This document shows positions 3,244-56,386 of a stretch of 64,000 nt of DNA, in pieces. Within the stretch, counting starts at the first letter, position 1. Each line of letters begins with the position of its first letter. This DNA comes from a virus. Taxonomy: Duplodnaviria; Heunggongvirae; Uroviricota; Caudoviricetes. The notes beneath the pieces were generated by a model. That model was given only the letters and a program-made list of their open reading frames with translations. It ran no database searches and was not told where the DNA came from. Position numbers and translations under genes: made by a program. The stretch lies in IMG/VR virus record IMGVR_UViG_2541047879_000001. One strand, given 5' to 3'.

Positions 3244-4357
3244 AGCTGATCCCCTGTTTTTTCATCTGCTGGCGAATAAAGGCATCAACATCGTCACCGG
3301 AACCACCCCGGCCCTTACTGTCCGGCTCTGCCGGAACGATAAAGCCGTCACGCGGTGCCAGTACCAGCCGGGTGACTTCCCCGTTATGCTCATCAAGTAA
3401 AAACTCCACCTGACAGACCAGCAGTTCAGTCTGTTCTATACCGAAACGCAGGGCTGAAACACCGGTCAGCAGATTGACATCCCATAACCGGCCATCATCC
3501 CGGAACCAGCCACGCACGGTGGCAGAAAACCGTTCTGAACGGGCAATCGCACGGCGCATTTCACGCAGGGCACGCTGCCGTGCACCGGTGATGCCTGTCT
3601 GTTGATCGGCGAGGATGATTTTCGGCCGGTAGCGGCCGATCTGCTCATCACTGATGACGCCCACAGGTGCTGCCAGACGGGCGGCGGATTCGCTGTCTCC
3701 CCGTTTGCCACCACCGCGCCCGTGTCCCCGGACACGGTATTCGCTGTATCGTCCTCGCCAGTCCGTGTTGTAATCGGCATCAAGCAGGTTATCTCCCAGC
3801 ACCAGTCTGTCCGTCTGCTGGCTTCCTGCCTGGGTGAACACCAGATCGCCGTCAGCATTACTGGTCACCAGCACCCCGCGATGCCGGGCAGCACGGGTCA
3901 GCGCATCCGCCACGGTTTCTGAGTTTTCCAGCGTAAAAGAGCTGAAGGGGCGTGCAGCCGTGTCGTCGTTAACCTGCCAGCGCACGGCTATCCCGAAGGG
4001 CGCACATAAATCTGCGGCAATCTGTGCCAGCGTCCGGTTGCGCCACTGGCTGCCGGGATGGATGGCGGCACAGTCCACCAGGTCGCCGGTTTTATCCCGA
4101 CCGCTGATGCTGATCTGATGACGGGTTGCACTGATCCGCTGACTGACCTGATCCAGCCAGCCACTGATGACCGTCTGCCCGTTAATTCTGAGCGTCAGGG
4201 ACTGACCGGTCCGCAGGGCTGAGGGGATGCGCTCACCGGGCAGCATCAGCCCCAGTTCAAACGACCCGGCCAGATGCTCCAGCGAGCGACGGACGCTGAC
4301 CGTCAGCCAGCCGGAAAAAATACTGCCGCCGATATACAGTTCAATCCTGCTGCTCAC
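3233..4357 (-). CDS. Tail protein P-like (Mu gp44-like, baseplate hub)
   Basis: 374-aa ORF, translationally coupled to neighbours, conserved order after the DNA circulation protein. Confidence 0.6.
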   Translation of the reverse strand: MSSRIELYIGGSIFSGWLTVSVRRSLEHLAGSFELGLMLPGERIPSALRTGQSLTLRINGQTVISGWLDQVSQRISATRHQISISGRDKTGDLVDCAAIHPGSQWRNRTLAQIAADLCAPFGIAVRWQVNDDTAARPFSSFTLENSETVADALTRAARHRGVLVTSNADGDLVFTQAGSQQTDRLVLGDNLLDADYNTDWRGRYSEYRVRGHGRGGGKRGDSESAARLAAPVGVISDEQIGRYRPKIILADQQTGITGARQRALREMRRAIARSERFSATVRGWFRDDGRLWDVNLLTGVSALRFGIEQTELLVCQVEFLLDEHNGEVTRLVLAPRDGFIVPAEPDSKGRGGSGDDVDAFIRQQMKKQGISFDE

Positions 4358-5699
4358 TGATCACCTCCACGCGGCGGCCACCCGGAACAAAAACCGGATC
4401 GGGGATATTGTTTCTGCGGACAAAATACTGCCAGCGGCGGCTGTTACCGGTGGCACGGTACAGCGTGACCAGTGCCGGTTCGGTGGTTCGCACCATGACC
4501 TGAAAAGCACCGGGAAGATGCACGCTCCGCGTGGTTAAATCTTCTGTCAGCGCAAGCCCTGCATCACGTAATGCAAGGGCGGTGCCGGTATGGCCCTGTG
4601 CGGACAGATCCAGCACCTGTTGTTCCATGGCATCGCTCAAATCCCGGTTGATACGCTGCACATCAGCAGAACTTTCCAGCCAGGCCAGTCCGCCCGCACG
4701 GTCAGTATCCTGAACGTGCGTCGTATTCTGCCGGATGACCTGATCCAGCAGTTTTCCGACCGTCTGCGCCTGCGACACCAGGGCTGCACTCTGCATGACG
4801 CTCCGCAGCAGACGGATATTGTTCTGTGCCGCAGGCGTCAGACCAATCAGGCGCTGCGGATCATCCTGTTCGCTGAGGGTGTAACGCAGGGAAGAAAGTG
4901 TGCGGTACAGCTGCGGCATGGCCTGCTCTGTCGTGCTGTCACGGTTTGTGGTCAGGCTGCCGGACGGCGTTCCGGCTTTTCCGGTCAGCGACAGGGAAGG
5001 ATCGCCGGGCAGCCCCGCCAGCACGGCAAACATTCCGGCCAGCGATTCAGCCATGCGACGGGGCGCATTAATCAGGGCGGCGGCATTCCCTTTCAGGGCA
5101 GTAAAACTGGCCGTAAAGGCACTGATATCCTGCACAATCCCCATCCCTGAAACGGCATTCTCCAGCGCATCAATTTTATCGCTGATGGTGTCGGTCATGG
5201 CCTGTACATCATGCAGACCGTCTGAAATCACCGTCCAGCCGTCTGAAAGTGTGTTAAACAGCTGATTCATTGCTGAGCCGCTTTTCTGCTCCAGCGCAGC
5301 TGCCGTATCTTCTGCCACCGAAGGGGCGGTATCGTCACTGGCGGGGATCACGTTGATCGTGAACTCAACCGTTCCCTGCTCGCTGGCGTTATAACGGCTT
5401 TCAAAGCTGTTTATCAGCACGTTTAACGTGCCGTAATCCGGGTGCATCAGTTCACCGGCACCGGGTGCACGCAGCGCATCACGCAGGCGGCTTCGCTGTG
5501 TCTGAAGATCGTCTCCGGTCACTAGAACCGTGAATGTGAACTCCGGGAGTTTTGGCCCCAGATCATCCGCACCGCCGCTTTCACGCAGTGGGTATTCACG
5601 GCGCACAATGTTACGTCCGCCCCGTTCCCGCTGCTCCTGATAAACCAGGAACGGTACGCCACGAAAGGAGCCACGCCCCGGCGTGTCAGTAGAGGCCAT
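4341..5699 (-). CDS. DNA circulation protein N-like (Mu gp43-like)
   Basis: 452-aa ORF directly downstream of tape measure gene. Confidence 0.6.
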   Translation of the reverse strand: MASTDTPGRGSFRGVPFLVYQEQRERGGRNIVRREYPLRESGGADDLGPKLPEFTFTVLVTGDDLQTQRSRLRDALRAPGAGELMHPDYGTLNVLINSFESRYNASEQGTVEFTINVIPASDDTAPSVAEDTAAALEQKSGSAMNQLFNTLSDGWTVISDGLHDVQAMTDTISDKIDALENAVSGMGIVQDISAFTASFTALKGNAAALINAPRRMAESLAGMFAVLAGLPGDPSLSLTGKAGTPSGSLTTNRDSTTEQAMPQLYRTLSSLRYTLSEQDDPQRLIGLTPAAQNNIRLLRSVMQSAALVSQAQTVGKLLDQVIRQNTTHVQDTDRAGGLAWLESSADVQRINRDLSDAMEQQVLDLSAQGHTGTALALRDAGLALTEDLTTRSVHLPGAFQVMVRTTEPALVTLYRATGNSRRWQYFVRRNNIPDPVFVPGGRRVEVISEQQD

Positions 5700-7743
5700 A
5701 GTTCCCTCCGTTCCAGACGTTCACATCCAGGCCATGCTGTGCGGTATCATCCACATCAATACTGCGCGCCCGCCAGCCTTCAGGGGCCACAAGCTCCACC
5801 CGTGCGGCGGTTTTCGCGGTGGCCTGTCCGCCGTTTTCGTCACTGCTGCCACGCAGTTTCTGCCAGGCCTGCGTCAGCCAGCCCCCCAGATAATCACCGA
5901 GATAGCTGCCCACCGTGGAACCAATGGCAACCCCGACCGGACCGGCAGCCGCCCCCAGCGCGCCACCGGCGATACTTCCGGCAAGAGAACCCACGGCACC
6001 GGCTTTATCGGCTGCACTGGCGCTGCTGTCCAGCAGTACAGGAGCCGCCATGGCACCGGCCCACAGGGCACCACCACCCAGCCGACCGGCACCACGGAAC
6101 AGCCCGGCAAAACGCCCCAGCCCCATGCGGTTTCCGGCCGCCGTTAGCAGACCACCGGCACGGCTCATCATACGACCGAAGAAGCCCTGTTTACCGGCAC
6201 TCTCCGCCAGTTGCTCACCGGCAGTCACGACGGTCGTGACACCCCGTCCACGTCCGGGGCCGCGTTTTTTACGGCCGCGCACGGTTTTGCCGTCACCGCT
6301 GACCACCACATCCCCGCCACCTGAGGCCAGGCCACCCGCAGGCCAGTTGGTGACCAGCACGGGCTGAACGGCAGCCGGATTTACCCCGGTAAGGAAATTC
6401 AGGAACCGGCCAGCGCGTCCGGGCTGCGTTCCCGGTACAGTGGTCTGCGGTTTGCGGAAGGGCGACGTCAGCACGGAGGTCATCGCCATGCCATAGCGTA
6501 AGGGGGTTGCGCCGAGACGTAATGCCCCCGTCCCCGCAAACCTGAGCACCTTCAGCGCACGGGAGGCGAGATACATATACATCAGGTACTTTGCGGCGGT
6601 CTGCGCACCCTGACCAATACGATCCAGCGCATCGCCATAACCGGCGTCGCGCAGTGCCTGAAGCGTTTCCCTGACTTTCTGAATGACCCGGTAAAAGCCG
6701 GTCGCAGCGTCTCTGGCATACTCAAATCCCTGATTCAGAGCTAAGGCCGTCTGTGTGGCCAGCTTATCCTGTAAGCCGCTTTTCTGTGCCGCATCGGCAT
6801 AATCCAGGAAGCCTTTCAGGCTCTTTTTCAGGCTATCAAACGGTCCCTTTGCCATCACCTCGCGGGCAAATCCGTCCCAGACATCGCCCATCATGGACGT
6901 CATTCCCGTCCAGGAATTCATGGCGTTTTTCTGGGCACCTTTTGCCTGTTCGGCCATCACCTGAAATAACAGGCGAATGCTGTCCGGCCCCAGTTTTCCT
7001 TTTTCGCCTTTCTCACGGATGATCTTCTGGTTTACGCCCAGCTTATCGGCCAGTAACTGGTAAACGTTAATCCCGTATCCGGTCAGAATATTGGCGTCCG
7101 CTGCCTGGATACTCTGGCGGGCAAACATCTGTTTGAGTTGCAGGGACGCACCCTGTGCATCTGACAGTGACCAGCCGTGATAGCCGCCCTGATCCTGAAG
7201 CATGGTAATAAAGCGACGGGCTTCCCTGTCACTCATGCCAAACCCGCGACTGGAGGCGTATTCCTGCATAACCCCCGCCAGCCCCCAGGTGGTGTCTTTG
7301 GCGTTCTGTACTGCCCAGGCTTTCACTGCTTCCGTTTTTGCCGTATCGCCATGATTAATGGCGTTGAGACGCAGAATATAGTTCTCCATCTCTGCGGCCG
7401 GGCGGATAAAGGCTTTATTAAAACCGTAGACCGCAGCCCCTCCCGCCAGCATCCCGTAAAGGTTGCTTATCCGCCCGATGGTGCCGGTAATGCTGCCCTG
7501 CAGGCGGTCAAAATCTGACGTTACCGTGCGGATGCTGCCACGAACACCGGCAAGCGTTCGCTGCATACGGGAGCCGACAAGTTCTGTTTCCTGACCGGCC
7601 CGGCGGGCTGCATTTCCAAGACCACCCAGGCCTGTCCTGCCGGAACGGGAGAACGCCCCCAGCTCCTGTGACCACTGGCGGGATTTGGCGGAAATATTGC
7701 CGAGTAAATCGACAATCAGGGAGGCTTTCAGGTTTTTTGCCAT
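5686..7743 (-). CDS. Tail tape measure protein
   Basis: 685-aa protein, Gly/Ala-rich with repeated GxxxG-like stretches, downstream of tail assembly chaperone. Confidence 0.7.
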   Translation of the reverse strand: MAKNLKASLIVDLLGNISAKSRQWSQELGAFSRSGRTGLGGLGNAARRAGQETELVGSRMQRTLAGVRGSIRTVTSDFDRLQGSITGTIGRISNLYGMLAGGAAVYGFNKAFIRPAAEMENYILRLNAINHGDTAKTEAVKAWAVQNAKDTTWGLAGVMQEYASSRGFGMSDREARRFITMLQDQGGYHGWSLSDAQGASLQLKQMFARQSIQAADANILTGYGINVYQLLADKLGVNQKIIREKGEKGKLGPDSIRLLFQVMAEQAKGAQKNAMNSWTGMTSMMGDVWDGFAREVMAKGPFDSLKKSLKGFLDYADAAQKSGLQDKLATQTALALNQGFEYARDAATGFYRVIQKVRETLQALRDAGYGDALDRIGQGAQTAAKYLMYMYLASRALKVLRFAGTGALRLGATPLRYGMAMTSVLTSPFRKPQTTVPGTQPGRAGRFLNFLTGVNPAAVQPVLVTNWPAGGLASGGGDVVVSGDGKTVRGRKKRGPGRGRGVTTVVTAGEQLAESAGKQGFFGRMMSRAGGLLTAAGNRMGLGRFAGLFRGAGRLGGGALWAGAMAAPVLLDSSASAADKAGAVGSLAGSIAGGALGAAAGPVGVAIGSTVGSYLGDYLGGWLTQAWQKLRGSSDENGGQATAKTAARVELVAPEGWRARSIDVDDTAQHGLDVNVWNGGNYGLY

Positions 7744-7870: not shown

Positions 7871-8350
7871 TCAATCTGATCCCGGCACTGCATCTGGTCG
7901 CCCCCGTTCAGCGACCAGCTTTCCTGCCATCGCGGAATCAAGCAGGCTTACCGCCGCCATCAGACGGGAGAGATCGCGCTCGCTGAGCTGTCCGATCTGA
8001 CGCGGAGACAATGGCCCCTCAATCTGGCCAACAGCGGCAATCTGACGGCGCAGCAGTGCAATGCCGCGCAGTGCCGGCGAGGCTATCAGAACCGGGCCGC
8101 CATTTCGGGTTTCCATAAGACGCTCGGCCTCGGTTTCCGCGTCAATGCTGTCTTTCGCCGTCAGTTCGCGGAAGGTGACGCGGTATTCACGGGATTCCCC
8201 GAACGGCAGACCGTCGAGCAGATCCACATAGCCGTTCGCCAGCTGTTCAGCCAGCCCGGCGGTGCGGGGATCGCCGTCTTCAAGTACATCCCGGATAGCC
8301 TCCATCACGGCCTCGTCAGAAACCGCCGTTTTTTTCTTACGTGTGGTCAT
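7871..8350 (-). CDS. Tail assembly chaperone (Mu gp41-like); possible frameshift extension to 7747
   Basis: 159-aa ORF between tail tube and tape measure; an overlapping ORF in another frame (7747-7941) ends right at the tape measure start. Confidence 0.45.
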   Translation of the reverse strand: MTTRKKKTAVSDEAVMEAIRDVLEDGDPRTAGLAEQLANGYVDLLDGLPFGESREYRVTFRELTAKDSIDAETEAERLMETRNGGPVLIASPALRGIALLRRQIAAVGQIEGPLSPRQIGQLSERDLSRLMAAVSLLDSAMAGKLVAERGRPDAVPGSD

Positions 8351-8364
8351 TGCATTTTTCCTGA

Positions 8365-8730
8365 TTACTGGACACGGGTACTGGTGGCGCTGGCGAACTT
8401 CGCGGAGATATCACCGCCACCGTCAAGCGAGGCCGGTTCACTGCTCCAGGCCTTCGTCATCATATGGACTTCACCGGTATCGGCCACGAACTCAATCGTG
8501 ACCGCAGTCCAGGTGTTGATTTCATCGGCAGCCGGTGAACCTTCTCCGCCAGCCGGAAATTTACAGTCCAGCGTCGCCTCACGGGGTTTCTCACGATAGC
8601 CATAGACTTTCGCGCCTTTCACCACTTCACGCTCAAAGCCGGACGGGGAGAACGTGGCTCCCTCAAGGGTGGCGTACTCCTGTCCGTTCACACGGATGGT
8701 GGCCGTGCCCTGATGCTGTTTTCCGCTCAT
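8365..8730 (-). CDS. Tail tube protein (Mu M-like)
   Basis: 121-aa ORF immediately after sheath gene. Confidence 0.65.
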   Translation of the reverse strand: MSGKQHQGTATIRVNGQEYATLEGATFSPSGFEREVVKGAKVYGYREKPREATLDCKFPAGGEGSPAADEINTWTAVTIEFVADTGEVHMMTKAWSSEPASLDGGGDISAKFASATSTRVQ

Positions 8731-14754: not shown

Positions 14755-16086
14755 TTAATCAATTTGTCCTTCCAGCACCTCAAGCATTCCGCCCCGGATA
14801 TCCGATTTCAGCTTATCCATATTGATAACCCGGTAAGCATTCACAATCACATCCAGTTTGTCGGGCTGACGTTTCAGACTGTACGGTGCATTAACGGCAA
14901 TCTGCACACTGCCATCCTTATTTTCCACGATATACATCAGATTGTTGTGCCGTTTGTCCCACAGCACCGCTTTTGGCTTTGCCAGCATTGCCGGTAAGCG
15001 CCCGAAGTCCTCTGGCATCAGGGCGATGCCGTCATTCTGATGTTTCACACTGTCTGCATGGAGCACATTTTTACCGCTCATCGCCAGCAGGCGGGCCGGT
15101 GGCGTTCCCGTCCGGCTTTCCACTGCCTGCGCAATGCTTTCAGTCATAAAGCCCAGCGTGCGGATATCGTTACCACCTCGCCGGGTCTGCATGATGTTTT
15201 TTGCCCAGATGCGGAACGCCAGCTGCCGCTCCGGGCTGTTGTTCATCTCCTGAACCACCATTTCCCGTAACGCCGGGCTTTTCACCTCGATCAGTTTGCG
15301 GATCAGCGCCTGGTCTGTGCCGAACGCTGCCGAGCCGGGGTTATATGACCAGCCCACATCCGGTGTCATGGTTCTGGTGCCATCTGAATATGTGGTCACC
15401 GGCATTTCTCTGACTTCTCCGGTCTGTTTATCCACGCCAGCCTCAACATTGCGGGTGGAGAGATGATCCTCACCGGATGAAACGGATAACCCCATTGCAT
15501 CCAGACGGGCCTGAGACAATGGCCGCACACGGCAGCGACAGTTCCAGCCATTGGGCGGGTAGTGAGTATTCCAGAACGGATCATCATAGCGGAATACCAG
15601 CCCGTTAAGGGCGGAATGTGCCGGGCGGGTGCGGCTGTCCATCACCGCCACATACTGCCAGAACGGATGCGTGTCCGTGTTGTTCATCATCTGCGTGTAA
15701 CGCCCGGCATTGTAAGCCACACGGGTGTTCACGTTGTAAATCAGCGCCAGACGGCGGGGGCTGCCAAGCTGCACTTCTTCCGCGTTCCCTGCACTGTCCA
15801 CCACAATCTGCTTTCCCCACCATCCCAGCTTTTGCAGGCGGGGTGTCAGCGTGCGGATAAATGTTTTCTGTGAAATGCCCTCATCAACAGCACGCTGCAC
15901 TTCCGCCTGTAGTGTGGTCAGTACGTCCAGGCGTGCCACTTTTGCCGCCGTGAATGAACGGGCATGAACATCCGCGTCTGTTTCGAACCAGTTCCAGCTG
16001 ATATGCTCCCCTTTGGCGCGGAAGTATGCCACCGCCTCTTTTGAGGGAAGCGTGGCGGCATAACCTAAATCAATCCCCTGTGTCAT
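14755..16086 (-). CDS. Head morphogenesis protein (Mu F/gp30-like)
   Basis: 443-aa ORF directly downstream of portal. Confidence 0.75.
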   Translation of the reverse strand: MTQGIDLGYAATLPSKEAVAYFRAKGEHISWNWFETDADVHARSFTAAKVARLDVLTTLQAEVQRAVDEGISQKTFIRTLTPRLQKLGWWGKQIVVDSAGNAEEVQLGSPRRLALIYNVNTRVAYNAGRYTQMMNNTDTHPFWQYVAVMDSRTRPAHSALNGLVFRYDDPFWNTHYPPNGWNCRCRVRPLSQARLDAMGLSVSSGEDHLSTRNVEAGVDKQTGEVREMPVTTYSDGTRTMTPDVGWSYNPGSAAFGTDQALIRKLIEVKSPALREMVVQEMNNSPERQLAFRIWAKNIMQTRRGGNDIRTLGFMTESIAQAVESRTGTPPARLLAMSGKNVLHADSVKHQNDGIALMPEDFGRLPAMLAKPKAVLWDKRHNNLMYIVENKDGSVQIAVNAPYSLKRQPDKLDVIVNAYRVINMDKLKSDIRGGMLEVLEGQID

Positions 16087-17668
16087 CCAGCATCCCCTTC
16101 ATTTCCGCAGCGAACATGGCATCACTGAGCAGCGTCATCAGGCGGGAATCATCCATTTCACGATAAAGGGCAGGCAGGTCTGCCAGCGCATCCGCCAGCC
16201 CCCGCGTTCTGATGGCATCAATGACCGGCTCCAGTACCGGGTCGATGGCCTCCTGTAAGCGGCGGGCAGGCACCGCGTCCCCCATATCATCCAGTTCATC
16301 ACGCGGCGTGCTTTTCGCTTCCGGCAGTCTGGCTGACAGCGCCGTCTGCTCTGTTTTTTCCTGTTTTTCCGGTGGTGTTTCCCTGTCGGTCTGAGCCGGT
16401 TCATTGCCACTCTGACGGACACGGAATATGGCTTCACCGGGCGTGGGCTGCGGAATACCGGTCTGCTCCCGTATCCAGGGATCAGAAATATCCATCCCCG
16501 TACTGAGCTGCATCACCGCACTGGTGATTTTGGTGATATCACCTGGTTCTTTGGTCTGGAAGCAGATACGTGGCAGACGGCGGATATCAATAGTGTGCGT
16601 GGTGTTCAGGGCGTACAGCGGATACACCAGATCGCGGTTCAGGGTTGCAGCCAGCTGCCGTAAATCAGAATCCCTGATTTCCCGGCGCACCTCGTTATGC
16701 ACCTCACCCAGCGAGCGCGCGCCTTTGTCTCCGGCTTCCGTGGTCAGCGTGCCGCCGAGTATTGCTTTGGAGATGGAACGCTCCCCCCACGAAATCATGG
16801 TTTCAAATGGATCGGCCTGACCGTTTGCTGCCGCCTGAAATTCCAGCGACATCCCGGCCGGGATGATCCCGCCTGTACGTCGCCCGATATCCATCACCGC
16901 CCGCATCAGGGCGCTTTTCTGCTCCGGTGTTGCCCCGGACGGGTATTTCCCGACCTTCATCGGCAGTCCGTACACCTCCAGAAATTCGGCCAGATCGCGC
17001 ACGGAATAGTTTTTGAAAATGAACGGCCAGATAAGCGTCCTGACAAGCCCCGTTGCGCCACCGTAACCGGTCCGTGAACGTGACTGATGCACTATCCAGC
17101 CAAAAGGCTGAAACGCCACCCCGGCATGGCTGCCGTCACGCAGCCGCAGTTCGCTCAAATCATCCGGGTTAAGGCAGAAATGCCCGCTGTCACGCCAGCG
17201 GATGGCGCGGATGATGTGCATTTTACCGAGCATCCCGTGCTCAATTTCCATGCAGGAATAGCCCTTCAGGATGGCATCCGTGGCGTCAAACAGCATGGCA
17301 TCAAACCAGTCTGCGGAATGCAGATATTCGTCGAGCATTTCCGCGTCCTTTTTCTCATTCGCGCTGGCGTTCGGTGGCGGCTCAATACTCCATGGCACCC
17401 CCTGAATGGCAAGACGTCGCTTGCCCAGCTCCGCAAAAAGGTGGGTGTCCTTTTCTTCAATGTCAGCCGCCAGATCGGACTGGGCAATCAGGTCGCCACG
17501 TTCAGCCCCCCGAAGGCACTGCGCCGCCCGGTTCGGGGTGATACCCGAGGCGGGATGCTCAACATAACGGCTGGCAATCTGCGGAATATCCAGCGCGGTA
17601 CTCTGCATCTCCGGGTCAAAGGAGAGAGGTTTTCCGTCAAGATCAATTATGCGTCCCACTACCAGCAC
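16070..17668 (-). CDS. Portal protein (Mu gp29-like)
   Basis: 532-aa ORF overlapping terminase large subunit stop. Confidence 0.8.
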   Translation of the reverse strand: MLVVGRIIDLDGKPLSFDPEMQSTALDIPQIASRYVEHPASGITPNRAAQCLRGAERGDLIAQSDLAADIEEKDTHLFAELGKRRLAIQGVPWSIEPPPNASANEKKDAEMLDEYLHSADWFDAMLFDATDAILKGYSCMEIEHGMLGKMHIIRAIRWRDSGHFCLNPDDLSELRLRDGSHAGVAFQPFGWIVHQSRSRTGYGGATGLVRTLIWPFIFKNYSVRDLAEFLEVYGLPMKVGKYPSGATPEQKSALMRAVMDIGRRTGGIIPAGMSLEFQAAANGQADPFETMISWGERSISKAILGGTLTTEAGDKGARSLGEVHNEVRREIRDSDLRQLAATLNRDLVYPLYALNTTHTIDIRRLPRICFQTKEPGDITKITSAVMQLSTGMDISDPWIREQTGIPQPTPGEAIFRVRQSGNEPAQTDRETPPEKQEKTEQTALSARLPEAKSTPRDELDDMGDAVPARRLQEAIDPVLEPVIDAIRTRGLADALADLPALYREMDDSRLMTLLSDAMFAAEMKGMLDDTGD

Positions 17669-36266: not shown

Positions 36267-36488
36267 TTAATTTGAATACAATGCAATTCTCGAGGACTGA
36301 AGTTTCTCGCAATTAAAATTTATCAGTTTTACTTTCTGCTCTCTGGAAACGCCTGCTTCTTTTTTACCTGAGAGCATTTTTTCGTATTCTGATTTCGTTA
36401 GTTTAGATTTTGAATATCTTGTCCAGTTAGTAGGAGTGCCACCTTCCTTTTCAATAGTGGCGGTAATTTTATACATGAACACCTCCAT
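36267..36488 (-). CDS. ydaC: YdaC/RcbA-like small protein
   Basis: Small ORF in Rac order between xis and ralR; start chosen at internal Met. Confidence 0.45.
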   Translation of the reverse strand: MEVFMYKITATIEKEGGTPTNWTRYSKSKLTKSEYEKMLSGKKEAGVSREQKVKLINFNCEKLQSSRIALYSN

Positions 36489-46458: not shown

Positions 46459-46667
46459 CGAGATTAAAGACCATTAATTCATATGTGAATTGACAGTTTC
46501 ATGGCACAGGATACGGCTAGCGTGGTTGTCTGTTTTGTGCCAGGGGCGGGCCTAACTAAGTTCACACAACATTGATTATTGAAGATTAGGTCAGAAATAA
46601 ATAGGTTATTTTGATAATTTAGTTACGTTAGAATGCCGCAGTGTACAAAGTAAAAATGAGGAATAAT

Positions 46668-48110: not shown

Positions 48111-48439
48111 ATTCTGAATTTGTTCGTGCAGAATCGGTGAACGTTCTCATCTGAGCGTTAAACGCCAATAATCGTTGATCTACATTGATCATTAATACAC
48201 CTTAATACCATTAGCGTCTTACTCCGTTATGAGAACAAACGCGAACTGACCTGCCCCCAGTATTAGTGACCTTCAGCTACGGTAACTTGTCCGCTTCGTG
48301 CCAGAAGCGGACATCCATAGAGAAATAAGCGATCAGTTCTTAAATTTGTTGTGATTTTTTGATTTTTTTGTATTCGCAAAGGGATTTGTGTTGGTTGTAT
48401 AATTACCTAATATTCATACAGTTGAATGGGAGATGTGGG

Positions 48440-49333: not shown

Positions 49334-49419
49334 GTCAGACTTACAGCCAACTGACTGTCTCTTATTATTCAAAACATAATAATGTTAGGTCCGCTTATCG
49401 CACATCAGGGACAACCATA

Positions 49420-49450
49420 CTCAAATCTCCCACATTGCAGGAGATTTGAG
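49420..49450. terminator. Perfect 11-bp inverted repeat between convergent genes
   Basis: ctcaaatctcc-cacattgca-ggagatttgag between stop of 48440-49333 and stop of 49574-50800. Confidence 0.4.
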
Positions 49451-49573
49451 TGTGAACACGTCACCGTGGAACAAAGACTGTATCATCGGTCAAAAAAGAC
49501 CTGGTTATCTAGCAAAAACTTTTAACATACCAACAAACTTAATTTATTTAAATGCTATTAATACAACTAATGT

Positions 49574-50800
49574 TTAAAATATATATTTTATATCAACCCA
49601 ATTTTTAGCATTATTGTCAACTAAAGTAACGCTATGTCCATGACTTGAATTTATAGCATCGATTACTGATTGTGATGGGTGTCCATGTGAATGACCATCC
49701 GACTGAGCTATAAACAAAACATTATCAAAATCCGCAATTATTTTTTGATTGAAATTTAATTCCGAACCATGATGAGGTAATGTCATCACCCTTACCGTTT
49801 TAATCACTTTTGAATAGAATTCAGCCCATTTATTATAATACAATGATGTATTAAGCTTTGAGTCACCTGTTAATAAAACAGATCTAATTCCTTTATCTCT
49901 ATCAAAGAGAAAATGTCGCTCAACCCGACTATTTCTAAAACTAAACCACTCACGAGAAGGCTCATTAACAATTTTCATCTCAGCTTCTTGATTATTAATA
50001 ATCAAGAGATTGATTGATATTACATTATGATCGCCAGCAAGTTTTAAATAACACTCGCGTAATTTCTTTCTTTCCCCCGTGCTAGTTAATATTTTAAGCA
50101 TTTTTTTCTTACTTAACTCAGTAAAACCATTTTCTATTAACTGCTGACTGAAAATTTCAATTTTCTTACGTGAACGGGGCGGTATCCAAGAAATAAATGA
50201 CATTAGTGTATCAGTTTTGTTTTCCCCAATCCTTTTAACCAACCAACGGTTACATTCAACATCTCCTTTGGAGTCAGATATTTTCATTGGTAAGCTTACA
50301 GCGCTATCCTTAATGTTTTCACTATTAAATATAGGAGGGTCAAAATTATCATCAATATCACAGGGGTAAAGCAAAGATATATCTGCCTCAGGCAACCTTG
50401 ATTTTATCCATTTGACAGGATCAATGAGAAATTCCATAAAAAGACCTGACGTAGAATTAGAGCATAGCTCCGATGCAATTAAGTAATAGCTATCATGGAT
50501 ATCTAGGTATGGTAATACAACCTTGCGTATTTTGTTATCTACAAGCTGACATAAATGGTCAAATCCATTTATATGGTCTGAATCCAAATGAGAGATGTAT
50601 ACCACATCAATATATTTCTCATCAATATTAAAGAGAGATTTAGCCACATCCATCTCCCTACGCAACGCATTTAATTGGTCACTTCCGCAGTCATACACAT
50701 AACTGTAAAGCAAACTACCATCCCTTCCCCTCAGTCCGCCTAAACTAAATCCACCCTGGCCAACGGGAAACAATCTTTTATGAAATACTTCTCCGCTCAT
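49574..50800 (-). CDS. Metallo-beta-lactamase-fold hydrolase, ComEC-type MBL signature (putative nuclease)
   Basis: HxHxDH-like motif YISHLDSDHINGFDH, later LPHHGS and DGHSHGHPS metal-ligand motifs; RBS aaggat before ATG; AT-rich. Confidence 0.7.
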   Translation of the reverse strand: MSGEVFHKRLFPVGQGGFSLGGLRGRDGSLLYSYVYDCGSDQLNALRREMDVAKSLFNIDEKYIDVVYISHLDSDHINGFDHLCQLVDNKIRKVVLPYLDIHDSYYLIASELCSNSTSGLFMEFLIDPVKWIKSRLPEADISLLYPCDIDDNFDPPIFNSENIKDSAVSLPMKISDSKGDVECNRWLVKRIGENKTDTLMSFISWIPPRSRKKIEIFSQQLIENGFTELSKKKMLKILTSTGERKKLRECYLKLAGDHNVISINLLIINNQEAEMKIVNEPSREWFSFRNSRVERHFLFDRDKGIRSVLLTGDSKLNTSLYYNKWAEFYSKVIKTVRVMTLPHHGSELNFNQKIIADFDNVLFIAQSDGHSHGHPSQSVIDAINSSHGHSVTLVDNNAKNWVDIKYIF

Positions 50801-51514
50801 ATATCCTTCTTACACCCTAACGTGATCATAAAATTGTCTTAAAGTTAAGTTTAAAGCTAAAAAGTCACAGCTCATTCCAACTCGTGAGCAATAGGAATGT
50901 ATATTCAATCAGTTAGAGGATCAACCCGATTTTCTCTAATGAGATTTCGCAACGCAGTACGAACAGCAGCTACTTCTGCCATCTCATTAACAACCACACT
51001 GGACTACAATCCCCTAAGTTCTACAGACTGTAACCATATCCTCTTCACAGAAATAATCTGATTAATGCTGAAGGTCATCTTTCTCGACGCGAATGTATGA
51101 CATAACAACCTCAGTTAATTATCTTTCGATAGAAAAATACCTTCACAAAAGGTTTAAGCAACCCATCACAAGACAACACGCTAAGCTTGCCTTGTAAGCG
51201 TCCTGCTTAACCGAACAGTTCGCTTTCAGAGGATCTCCGGAGAACAGCTCCGATGCCTTATAAGGCCAATGCTCGCTCCTCGCTCACTGCGGACCTAAGG
51301 TTTGGTCAGCTTGTTCGCACTCTGCCAAAAGCGGGAGTTACTCCCATTCGGTGTTAATCAATGTAGAGCAGATCAATCAACGACAAAGAAAATGAGAGGC
51401 ATATCACTACTCATATGAAAATTATTGTAGTAAAGTGAGCCGTAAGTTCATCATTTATAAATCATATAGCATATATGTTATATCAATTTTAATTTAAATG
51501 GCAGAATAATTACC

Positions 51515-52219
51515 ATGGAAAAAATTAAAACTCCTTGTCCATATTGTAAAGGTGAAAAAAATTGCCACATAATAGGCCATAAAAAAAGAGAATGGAGTGA
51601 GGATGATGGGGGCAACTATTTTTGGGCTGAAAGTGAATACAAATTATTAGAGTGTATGGGGTGCGACGGAATATTTACATATATTAAATCCCGTCACAGT
51701 GAAGATTACGACATTGAAAGAGATGAGTCAGGCTATGATTGTATGGTATATAACTATCATATATCAACATATCCCACTCAAGAGCAAGAAGAGATTAGAC
51801 CAACTTGGTTTGGTGAGACATTAAACAAAGATCGTCAGCTGTATGTAATAATGAACGAAATGTACATCGCATTTCAAAATAAATCATTCATTTTAGCGGC
51901 GATTGGACTTAGAACTATTTTTGACAGAACAGTTGAGGTTCTAAATATTCATCCAGGATATACATTAGGCCAGAAGGTTGACATTCTTAAAGAGGAAGGT
52001 TTTATTGGGGAAACAGAAAGGAGCCAACTTAAAATTGTAACCGAAGCTGGCAACTCAGCTGCACACAGGACATGGGCACCGAACGAAACTGAATTTAAAT
52101 CGCTTTTGGTAATTATAGAAAATTTTGTAATGCGAACAATACTAAAAAATGAGGATATATTTAAGATTACAGAAAAATTACCTGCGAAATATCCAAGACC
52201 TCCCAAAAAGCAAGAATAA
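51515..52219 (+). CDS. Zinc-ribbon plus DUF4145-like (HEPN-like?) protein; candidate abortive-infection effector
   Basis: N-terminal CPYC...(36 aa)...CMGC four-Cys ribbon; C-terminal AAIGLRTIFDRTVEVL...AGNSAAHRTW region recalled as DUF4145-like; weak RBS. Confidence 0.5.
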   Translation: MEKIKTPCPYCKGEKNCHIIGHKKREWSEDDGGNYFWAESEYKLLECMGCDGIFTYIKSRHSEDYDIERDESGYDCMVYNYHISTYPTQEQEEIRPTWFGETLNKDRQLYVIMNEMYIAFQNKSFILAAIGLRTIFDRTVEVLNIHPGYTLGQKVDILKEEGFIGETERSQLKIVTEAGNSAAHRTWAPNETEFKSLLVIIENFVMRTILKNEDIFKITEKLPAKYPRPPKKQE

Positions 52220-52657
52220 TGTACGTAAGTGTAAATAGAGCTAAGAGATTATATATTGACTCTGGTTATCTCTATTAGCACATGCTTTTTGTAATGCCTT
52301 AACTGATTATTTAAACTCCTGTCAGCTTTTCGCTCAAAGCGGACTAAAGTGTTGGCTTGTGACTGACTTAGCGCATTTAAGGAAGTGGTGGTGGTGACGG
52401 GGTGTTGTGTCCCATTTCCACAGAATAAATCAGAGAAACTATAGCGGCTGTAATGGCAATCTATGGTCTTGCTATTGCTCTTATGGATCACCTTTCTGAT
52501 TGATTTCATATTGGCGAGGTAACGGGAGTTAAGTAGAATAGCTGCGGGTGCTTGAGGCTGTCTGCCTCGGGCATGAACACCAAAGGCAGATAGAGAAAAG
52601 CCCCAGTTAACATTACGCGTCCGGCAAGACGCTTAACATTAATCTGAGGCCACATCT

Positions 52658-52906
52658 ATGCTTTGCATACGTAGATTAGCCTCTTACCGACCAAAAGGTC
52701 AAGGAGAAGCAGGCTATGAAGCAGCAAAAGGCGATGTTAATCACCCTGATCGTCATCTGTTTAACCGTTATAGTGACGGTACTGGTAACGAGGAAAGACC
52801 TCTGCGAGGTACGAATCCGAACCGACCAGACGGAGGTCGCTGTCTTCACAGCTTACGAACTTGGGGAGTAAGAGGACCAGCGGGGAGAAATCCCCGCAAC
52901 CTCTGA
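52658..52906 (+). CDS. Possible mok-like overlapping reading frame of the hok locus
   Basis: ORF starting 58 nt upstream of hok and overlapping it in another frame, as in hok/sok/mok loci; positional inference. Confidence 0.3.
   Translation: MLCIRRLASYRPKGQGEAGYEAAKGDVNHPDRHLFNRYSDGTGNEERPLRGTNPNRPDGGRCLHSLRTWGVRGPAGRNPRNL
52716..52871 (+). CDS. hok: Hok-family membrane toxin (HokD/RelF-like), type I toxin
   Basis: 51-aa ORF MKQQKAMLITLIVICLTVIVTVLVTRKDLCEVRIRTDQTEVAVFTAYELGE found by reading (below track cutoff). Confidence 0.8.
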   Translation: MKQQKAMLITLIVICLTVIVTVLVTRKDLCEVRIRTDQTEVAVFTAYELGE

Positions 52907-54870: not shown

Positions 54871-55807
54871 ACGTCAGGAAAGCAGGGGAGAATGCTGCTA
54901 GTTGGGCAACTGGTCTTTCTGCTCCAAATTATAACAGAGACCAGTTATAGTTTCGGTGCTGTGTTTTTTTTACAATATTGTGATAACACATTGCTGGCGG
55001 GAGTTTTGATATTTCTTGGCAGGGGCTGATGATGCGTTATCCTGATGTCGTCAACTCATATAAAATGAGATGAGAGATCATTGCAGGGTGGTTTGTAATT
55101 CGCTGTTTAGCGGGACAATATGTTGTCTGATACAAGACACCCGACGCCTCAGATTACTATAATAAAGACGAAGCATCCTTTGTATTGACCAACCGCCTGT
55201 TTAGGCGGTTCTTTTTGGGCTGGTTTATTGTATGCCAAATGATTATTAAAAAGGTTGTGTTAATAACAAAACCCGAAATAATATGCCTGCATATTTTTAT
55301 CTTGCTTATATTCTGCATATTGTGCATAGCAGGCTCATCCCTGCAATCAAAACTGTATGATGAGTATTTTTTGTTTTCCTTTTTTCCAGTCATCTGATGA
55401 TGACCTGCTTCTTTTTAATCCGGATCGACATCAGTTTTTTAAGATAATTCCTGCGAGTTATATGCATAAATACCACAAACTCCGCATTTTATGTGGTTGG
55501 GAGTTGCCGGGCGCGCAGTGAGTTTGCTAAGAAAACTCCTGCATGGTGAATCCCCCTGTGCGGTGGGGTGATACCATTAACCTTTTCTGTCGCCGACAGG
55601 TATCACGAACATTTTGTTCACCGGGAGGCACCCGGCACCATGCACTTCAATAGATTCTCTCCACATTATGGATATTCTTTCAGAATATCCCACGCAGACT
55701 TTGTGTAAATGTTAACAAATGTGCGTTTTATTTGATCTGATTCGCTGTTTGAGCGTCCAAAACAACGGTATATATAATCCTTTACTATATGACATATGTG
55801 AGGAAAA

Positions 55808-56236: not shown

Positions 56237-56386
56237 TATTTATTGTTTTGTAATAAACGGTTTCGGCTTAGGTTTGTTCTGACACAGCTACGGCACTGAG
56301 CTAAATTTAGCGGATAGTCAGCTCTGAGCCAGTGGCGGACGTAACAACTACTATTGCTGAGATTTTAATGGATTGAGGAGCAAGAA

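Follow-up and report, generated by a model that had tools for sequence, protein, structure and literature searches.

Three described systems in which accessory genes are carried between recombination sites come closest to the locus considered here. Inverted repeats flanking the fun(Z) gene, in phage P2 and in enterobacterial genomes, are reportedly the subject of a 2004 paper by Nilsson, Karlsson and Haggard-Ljungquist (Mol Biol Evol 21:1). The pdif (XerC/XerD) modules of Acinetobacter plasmids are discrete units bounded by sites of about 28 bp, arranged as arm, 6 bp and arm, that alternate in inverted orientation and occur in many replicon backgrounds. Integrons, finally, hold arrays of promoter-poor single-gene cassettes with structured recombination sites and a tyrosine recombinase gene beside the site. 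Summarizing the P2 case, a review (PMC8987985) states that inverted repeats flanking fun enable site-specific recombination and credits the 2004 paper, and a study of the P2/P4 hotspot does not mention the repeats (PMC9122126). Here we analyze the spacer at positions 50801-51514 of a 64,000-nucleotide stretch of viral DNA (IMG/VR record IMGVR_UViG_2541047879_000001; Caudoviricetes), the whole of which we call the window. Comparison of sequences leads us to regard this spacer as probably the seam between two mobile cassettes in an array that fills the DUF977-hok/sok hotspot of a Rac/Qin-like lambdoid prophage. Literature searches by sequence string and keyword returned no description of the sites, the arrays or the linked enzyme described below, beyond the secondary summary on the fun repeats.

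Gathering-level Rfam matches to RalA (36292-36470), sok (52546-52721) and STnc100 (55511-55697) identify the window as part of an Escherichia coli prophage of Rac/Qin type. A profile search that started from a hairpin-like 24-mer at the end of a GC-rich patch in the spacer recovered a family of 24-bp sites with the consensus GTCCGCTNT-G[T/A]GC[C/G]A-RRAGCGGAC, that is, two 9-bp arms around a 6-bp core (GWGCSA). Six copies with three or fewer mismatches occur in the window, against 0.06 expected, and none of 100 shuffled sequences reached six; a profile scan added a seventh, degenerate copy at 51313-51336. From left to right, the array opens with a degenerate L-type site (46528-46551, +), which the conserved DUF977-side backbone flank precedes. 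A perfect L-type site (48289-48312, +) lies between the dGTPase gene that follows and a gene for an AbiJ-like (PDC-S32) protein, whose cassette is closed by an R-type site (49389-49412, -) with a core mutated to GTGCGA and an outer arm of the integrase-proximal variant GTCCCTG. Next come an integrase remnant, a gene for a metallo-beta-lactamase (MBL)-fold hydrolase, a dead gene and the relic of an insertion sequence (IS), up to an R-type site (GTCCGCAGT-GAGCGA-GGAGCGAGC; 51271-51294, -; three mismatches to the search pattern) that marks the right end of the MBL cassette. Homology with loci L054, L055 and L079 stops at 51294-51296. An 18-bp spacer (51295-51312) and the degenerate L-type site (GTTCGCACT-CTGCCA-AAAGCGGGA; 51313-51336, +) at the left end of the DUF4145 cassette complete the junction, and beyond the DUF4145 gene an R-type site (52321-52344, -) closes both that cassette and the whole array, next to the conserved hok-side backbone flank and hok/sok. 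Each cassette is bounded by inverted 24-bp sites, with an L core at its left end and an R core at its right, and neighbours meet as R-18 bp-L; the GC-rich patch is an IS3-family relic followed by an R/L junction (51271-51336) with both sites decayed. A weak match at 56315-56342 (+), with two mismatches and the hybrid core GAGCCA, lies inside a phage lysozyme gene and is probably due to chance.

The sites are common beyond the window. The exact pattern was found in at least 120 viral contigs, and an L-type 30-mer in 3716 of 5426 E. coli genomes, at one to six places in each and on the chromosome in 96% of cases. Two core positions, 11 and 14, split the copies into class L (T and C; GTGCCA) and class R (A and G; GAGCGA), with hybrids at about 1%. 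A census of pairs revealed 66 arrangements of the type L(+)...R(-) more than 400 nt apart (541 nt upward), which we read as cassettes, and 19 non-redundant back-to-back junctions, 11 of which have exactly 18 bp between the sites, as in the window. In phages Tritos and mEp460 a single cargo gene lies between L and R in the same hotspot, and in the Qin prophage of E. coli K-12 an L and an R site (L242, 4999-5023 and 5990-6018) bracket flxA, whose orientation is flipped relative to the backbone. In that prophage the L site falls within ydfV, an annotated but seemingly spurious open reading frame (ORF), and relBE lies between hokD and the same site. Among SSU5-like phage-plasmids of Klebsiella (L008 2768-5305; L118-L120), sites follow GFA, DUF6404 and a hypothetical gene, and breakpoints (insertion of an NYN gene, ISKpn34 and an IS110-family element) fall at or in sites. 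Many sites, L and R alike (for example in L212, L197, L168 and L240), have on their inner side a stretch of roughly 30 nt similar to ATTGCTAACAGCGTTCTGTGTGAATCAA, which is joined to 10 outer-flank families.

The P2 fun(Z) cassettes are among the systems closest to this arrangement. The profile of the window family recovered both sites in P2 itself (AF063097), with L at 15334-15361 (+; E=1.5e-5) and R at 17429-17450 (-; E=1.8e-5) on either side of fun(Z), so the repeat around fun(Z) is the same as in the window, and P2-like phages supply two of the most frequent families of outer flanks in our set. Both systems have cargo between inverted copies (the DUF4145 cassette has L and R, the MBL cassette only R, with its L end deleted), in both a given cargo recurs in more than one replicon and homology breaks off at the repeats, and they share the idea that cargo is exchanged by site-specific recombination at inverted repeats. 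The DUF4145 cassette occurs at that same P2 locus. Insofar as the summary represents the 2004 paper, the locus described here differs in its lambdoid hotspot, its multi-cassette array with R-18 bp-L junctions, its two core classes and its linked recombinase. The kind of element is taken here to be known already, with this locus a further member whose array and enzyme are possibly new aspects.

Movement of a cassette as a unit is evident for DUF4145. The interval 51323-52344 is 89% identical to positions 5001-6021 of EC11, where it follows pinE in an e14-like prophage, and homology there breaks off where the L and R sites end on their outer sides. The cassette is found again at 82% identity in a P2-like prophage of an O121 strain, between the tail-fibre assembly and tail-sheath genes, which is the Z/fun locus. 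Homology of the window with these two prophages starts at 51317-51323, within the L site. Overall, the cassette resides in three unrelated prophage backbones (Rac-like, e14-like and P2-like) at 82-91% identity. The backbone shows the complementary pattern: on the DUF977 side, homology with about 1,490 E. coli genomes runs as far as 46532-46549, within the first L site, and matches to the hok-side backbone alone start at 52325 or 52346.

The position of the exchange was mapped with 205 non-redundant copies, for each of which 40 nt outside and 40 nt inside the site were clustered into flank families. Nineteen outer-flank families were joined to at least two inner families (up to 15), and 12 inner families to at least two outer families (up to 10). 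Within the site, positions 4, 8, 9, 11 and 14 track the outer flank, with a residual entropy of 0.05-0.38 bit given the outer family versus 0.29-1.0 given the inner, and positions 16, 17, 21 and 24 track the cassette (0.29-0.49 given the inner family versus 0.57-1.13 given the outer). The linkage statistic was 3.13; shuffles averaged 0.07 and peaked at 1.27, none of 200 reached the observed value, and a mirrored control gave -2.62. For example, the P2-type flank ...caaatctgaca is always followed by GTCTGCTTT-GAGCGA, and the right arm varies with the cargo (AAAGCGGAC, GGAGCGGAA, TAAGCAGAC and others). Since left-hand variants follow the outer flank and right-hand variants follow the cassette, the crossover can be placed in or at the 6-bp core. 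The same map bears on the proposal that the sites are terminal inverted repeats of non-autonomous cargo transposons, similar to MITEs (miniature inverted-repeat transposable elements) and mobilized by a transposase in trans, in which case the patch would be two abutting transposon ends. Inverted L and R copies do flank cargo, one cassette does recur in three backbones, and the flxA cassette of K-12 shows that orientation relative to the backbone can flip. We nevertheless hold this explanation to be very unlikely: each site's outer half follows the backbone instead of the cassette, target-site duplications were not seen at the junctions inspected, each end is itself palindromic, and the linked gene encodes a tyrosine recombinase and not a transposase.

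That gene was recognized from a remnant in the window (49413-49501, +), which comprises an upstream region and about 17 codons from a GTG start at 49452. Positions 49398-49501 are 93-95% identical by blastn to the 5' end of genes annotated as 'site-specific integrase', and tblastn alignments cover residues 1-30 of a 200-aa protein. The R site at 49389-49412 corresponds in position and in its outer arm to the R site upstream of the intact integrase genes of KBN10P04869 and CFT073. CFT073 carries the gene intact (L245 4054-4656), with R(-) on one side and L(+) on the other, in place of the usual 18-bp junction spacer, and in KBN10P04869 the same DUF977-hok hotspot holds the series L-c1-R.L-c2-R-int-L-c3-R, where c1 to c3 are cassettes and int is the integrase. 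The protein, also encoded at L257 6063-6665, consists of the catalytic domain only (PF00589), has XerD (E=0.0016) and XerA (E about 1e-3) as its nearest solved structures, and is 76-96% identical across Gammaproteobacteria. In all contexts examined (E. coli, Providencia, Idiomarina and marine metagenome-assembled genomes), a hairpin (CAGGGCTG-N4-6-CAGCCCTG) overlaps an L-type site (...CCTGTGCCARRAGCGGAC) located 25-30 nt after the integrase stop codon. Of 5426 E. coli genomes, 904 carry the gene. An arm-core-arm layout with a core identical within each class is typical of tyrosine-recombinase core sites.

The association is strong and makes the 200-aa recombinase a candidate for the enzyme that acts on the sites. 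In the mechanism that we propose, the 24-bp sites would be core sites of a site-specific recombinase of tyrosine type, the likely enzyme being the one whose truncated gene (49452-49501) sits at the neighbouring junction. L would recombine with L and R with R, because the two cores differ at two positions. This would allow a cassette to be traded between replicons in the manner of recombinase-mediated cassette exchange, or to join an array via a circular R-18-L intermediate. The deletion that truncated the integrase gene in the window would also explain the missing L end of the MBL cassette. Given that both of its sites are decayed and that the resident integrase gene is truncated, the junction in the window is probably inactive.

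A competing view dispenses with the dedicated enzyme: the sites would be short stretches of conserved sequence at which phages residing together recombine homologously, through RecA or phage Red/RecET, with the cassette pattern as a consequence. It draws strength from the RecE protein (exodeoxyribonuclease VIII) that the window prophage encodes and from the fact that most site-bearing genomes carry no small integrase; moreover, 24-28 bp is near the minimum for exchange by RecA, Red or RecET. However, it does not account for a palindromic site that is nearly invariant at about 20 of 24 positions over unrelated flanks, for two core classes with about 1% hybrids, for junctions fixed at 18 bp, or for an integrase gene that always precedes such a site in distant genera; the switch of linkage is also sharp at the core and not graded along the site. 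On balance we judge homologous recombination to be an unlikely explanation.

A candidate tyrosine recombinase beside arrayed sites invites comparison with integrons, with which the locus has several things in common: single-gene cassettes, poor in promoters, stand in arrays with structured recombination sites between them, a gene for a tyrosine recombinase adjoins the site where cassettes start, and the cargo is rich in defence functions. The differences are substantial. Here the recombinase has 200 aa and a catalytic domain only, whereas IntI has about 320 aa and an IntI-specific insertion; the sites have no attC R''/R' boxes (RYYYAAC / GTTRRRY); and each cassette has two inverted ends instead of one attC, with genes in either orientation. 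A reading of GCTTAAC...GTTAATC as an attC site was rejected, the GTTRRRY box being absent. Like pdif modules, the cassettes are discrete accessory-gene modules bounded by arm-6-arm sites. Unlike them, each neighbour keeps its own end (R-18-L) instead of contributing to one shared site, and the arms do not resemble XerC/XerD arms (for example TTATGTTAAAT) in a visual comparison with the dif, cer and psi sites. A likeness to DNA-invertase sites (hix, cix, pix) or to XerCD dif was judged unconvincing.

Several observations weigh against the cassette-seam interpretation or its enzymology. It rests wholly on comparative sequence. Two ends expected in the window array are missing, in that no R site follows the dGTPase gene and the MBL cassette has no L site, and the model does not explain why a solo IS end (see below) adjoins the R site in several unrelated cassettes. 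The linkage test relies on our own clustering of flanks and on copies retrieved with a profile built from one degenerate pattern. Although a 6-bp core with 9-bp arms fits tyrosine recombinases, arm positions 8, 16 and 17 are variable, and an HUH enzyme nicking in the hairpin loop would yield the same pattern of linkage. The recombinase was assigned by guilt by association, with sites in 3716 genomes and the integrase in just 904; since most site-bearing genomes are devoid of it, one has to suppose that it acts in trans, that a different enzyme is responsible or that the activity lies in the past.

The spacer had been described in the first-pass annotation as a possible structured RNA, decayed gene or shared regulatory region, and the first of these proposals found no support. 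No Rfam family matched within 51100-51350 at its gathering score or even at E<10; elsewhere in the spacer the best Rfam matches were chance snoRNA or caiA matches far under threshold, and ARAGORN predicted no tRNA or tmRNA. Minimum free energies were not better than those of shuffled sequences (z-scores of -0.9 on the plus and -1.6 on the minus strand), and RNAalifold on 11 distinct variants of the patch returned a consensus of -4.7 kcal/mol with a positive covariation term (a penalty) and no compensatory pairs. The 24-bp site can be folded as a 7-bp stem with a 10-nt loop. This single conserved hairpin showed no compensatory change over 215 copies: stem pair 4-21, for instance, was C-G in 110, T-G in 60, C-A in 25 and T-A in 9, which indicates that sequence and not structure is conserved, and the hairpin was rejected as an RNA stem. 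The broader proposal, that the patch encodes a structured RNA or that its hairpins act in RNA as terminator, stabilizer or processing site for the flanking defence genes, can also appeal to the higher GC content of the patch, to the 208 of 223 non-redundant site copies that lie outside ORFs of at least 90 aa (15 lie inside), and to the predominance of L-type copies downstream of a same-strand gene (72 versus 14). Against it, R-type copies have no strand bias relative to genes (56 versus 44), no T-run follows the hairpin, and the spacer diverges from its homologue L055 at about the synonymous rate. Together with the folding results, this leaves an RNA function highly improbable.

The suspicion of a decayed gene proved correct for one part of the spacer. 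Positions 50905-51103 (-) align with a 65-aa ORF (WP_021560858.1; family P0001-P0034) that is intact in other E. coli prophages, and carry a TAA at codon 14 and a +1 frameshift caused by a 1-nt insertion. The minus-strand peptide MAEVAAVRTALRNLIREN..., picked out at the first reading as a possible fragment of a degraded small gene, is the C-terminal part of this recognizable pseudogene. The upstream region of the gene (51104-51192, -), presumably promoter and 5' untranslated region, travels with it and is 79-83% identical to the sequence upstream of intact copies elsewhere. Rates were compared using L055, a diverged homologue of the whole MBL locus with 84% overall identity. The stop at codon 14 is common to the window and L055, which implies that the pseudogene is old and that the gene died long ago. 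The MBL coding sequence is 86.6% identical between the two, with 94 of 164 differences at third codon positions (about 77% identity there), and the pseudogene and the upstream region of the small gene are 76.9% and 79% identical, respectively. The closeness of the pseudogene value to that of MBL third positions suggests that the spacer drifts at a roughly neutral rate. The 65-aa family comprises 34 clusters, confined to Enterobacterales, and had no match in Pfam, NCBIfam or PADLOC. Its members adjoin varied conflict genes (GIY-YIG/T5orf172, FRG, MBL) and also follow CTD6/MC2/608-aa trios; further copies were noted at L005 4807-5004 and in loci L058, L061, L062 and L066.

Between the upstream region of the dead gene and the R site lies a solo left-end relic of an IS3-family element (51193-51270). 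A degenerate-pattern scan of metagenomes and viral contigs revealed the origin of the right-hand 45 nt of the conserved patch, namely the left terminal repeat of such an element. In dozens of loci the start of orfA is followed by 78 nt and then by ...GGTTCGGTTAAGCGGGATACTTACA, beyond which the DNA is unrelated. A complete reference copy (L098 8400-9606; 1207 bp) carries orfA/orfB (NF033516, 226 bits), and its ends match and are accompanied by a direct repeat of 4 bp; 123 plasmid records of Enterobacterales hold copies that span 80% or more of its length. Positions 51193-51235 match the left inverted repeat (IRL) of the complete element at 35 of 43 nucleotides, including the TG terminus (51193), which faces the small gene and is shared with transposase-bearing copies; 51236-51270 is an imperfect inverted copy of the inner part of the IRL match. 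In all contexts inspected (more than 10), conservation ends exactly at the TG/CA terminus. The relic differs from the complete elements in that it has no transposase ORF, no recognizable right inverted repeat and no target duplication. Its internal inverted repeat is weak, with p ranging from 0.007 to 0.9 among variants, and a MITE interpretation of the relic, with two terminal inverted repeats and a target duplication, found weak and inconsistent support; the segment is an IS3-family relic, at most MITE-like. The reference element interrupts a gene at 8038-8403 and beyond 9606 of L098, which we take from its N-terminal sequence alone to be Rpn/transposase_31-like (PD-(D/E)XK). In locus L070 (about 3980-4100), a second IS-like end (TGTAAGTAT) lies 8 nt outside an R site, beside an element that carries the IS relic.

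The remaining features of the spacer belong to the two cassettes. The spacer is present at 99.7-100% identity in eight complete E. coli genomes, where the Prokaryotic Genome Annotation Pipeline (PGAP) annotates nothing in it. In strain RM9513 the genes to the left run recE ... cI/cro-like ... ydaV, DUF1627, DUF977, an anti-phage dGTPase, a hypothetical protein and the MBL-fold hydrolase (on the minus strand), and those after the spacer run DUF4145, hokD, DUF1367, DUF1364, DUF1133 ... lysis genes. The dGTPase was confirmed by PADLOC and Pfam (E=9e-145), and both resources identify the hypothetical protein as the AbiJ-like PDC-S32 protein. The left cargo gene encodes an MBL-fold metallo-hydrolase of 408 aa (49574-50800, -; PF00753), with weak PADLOC and NCBIfam matches to C-terminal parts of LmuA, Avs1a and 6A-MBL. 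Its leader with the ribosome-binding site (50801-50904, -) is the least conserved segment of the spacer, at 65% identity to L055, and conservation there is confined to about 40 nt adjoining the MBL start. On the right, the DUF4145 gene (234 aa; 51515-52219, +; PF13643) is annotated by PGAP with 477 nt in RM9513, but its annotation in both EC11 and the O121 strain spans 705 nt, and it is this longer ORF that is conserved. The AT-rich 5' part of its cassette (51337-51514, +), the presumed promoter, is 89-91% identical to EC11, an unrelated prophage context. As first described, the spacer has no ORF of 60 aa or more (the longest has 54 aa), and the GC content per 100 nt is indeed raised, at 0.49-0.55 over 51150-51349 against 0.33-0.41 leftward and 0.21-0.35 rightward. 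The palindrome GGGAGT-T-ACTCCC that had drawn attention is located at 51334-51346, overlapping the inner edge of the L site. Because the homologous EC11 cassette reads GGAAGCTACTCCCC at this position and does not keep the palindrome, it is best considered a chance feature.

Whether the spacer serves as a regulatory region common to the divergent MBL and DUF4145 genes is a related question. In favour of reading the palindromic sites as operators of a dimeric transcription factor that co-regulates or insulates cassettes, they have dyad symmetry together with a conserved sequence, and in the window they lie between divergent genes. Yet sites occur on both the 5' and the 3' sides of genes and in either orientation, they coincide with breakpoints of homology and contain the mapped crossover, there is no linked gene for a regulator, and both copies in the spacer are decayed; an operator role consequently seems barely probable. 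With the two genes sitting in separately mobile cassettes, any regulatory sharing is at best incidental. A scan of the spacer for promoters and terminators gave two promoter-like sites, against 2.4 expected, and no terminators. Insertions of IS1 at about 51143 (ET490 and relatives) and of IS3 at about 51234 (E1, PRO_A-1462) occur in other strains, and modular breakpoints that partial BLAST matches had indicated at 51143 and 51234 were rejected as these insertions. Two other candidates were discarded: 38 contig matches to ATAAGGCCAATGYYCGCT, all from unrelated taxa and none alignable to the spacer by BLAST, were attributed to chance, and tblastn ruled out that the GFA gene of Klebsiella has left a remnant in the window.

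The spacer itself is debris, composed of a pseudogene, an IS scar and two decayed sites, and holds no new RNA or gene; its value lies in serving as an entry point. The same 24-bp sites provide cassette boundaries at base-pair resolution in the Z/fun locus of P2, the DUF977-hok hotspot, the end of e14 and flxA of K-12, and belong to a widespread and little-described cassette system, to which the present analysis adds a map of the crossover and a candidate recombinase. With somewhat less than even confidence, we suggest that enterobacterial prophages (lambdoid, e14-like and P2-like), phage-plasmids and genomic islands may share an integron-like platform, made of a 200-aa recombinase and 24-bp sites with two heterospecific cores, on which single defence genes would be swapped and stacked via R-18 bp-L junctions, and of which this spacer would be a fossil junction. 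If the linked recombinase is the enzyme, the system would supply a mechanism by which defence genes hop between unrelated phages, the L...R signature could be used to mine for new defence genes, and the sites and enzyme together would constitute a compact natural system of cassette exchange.

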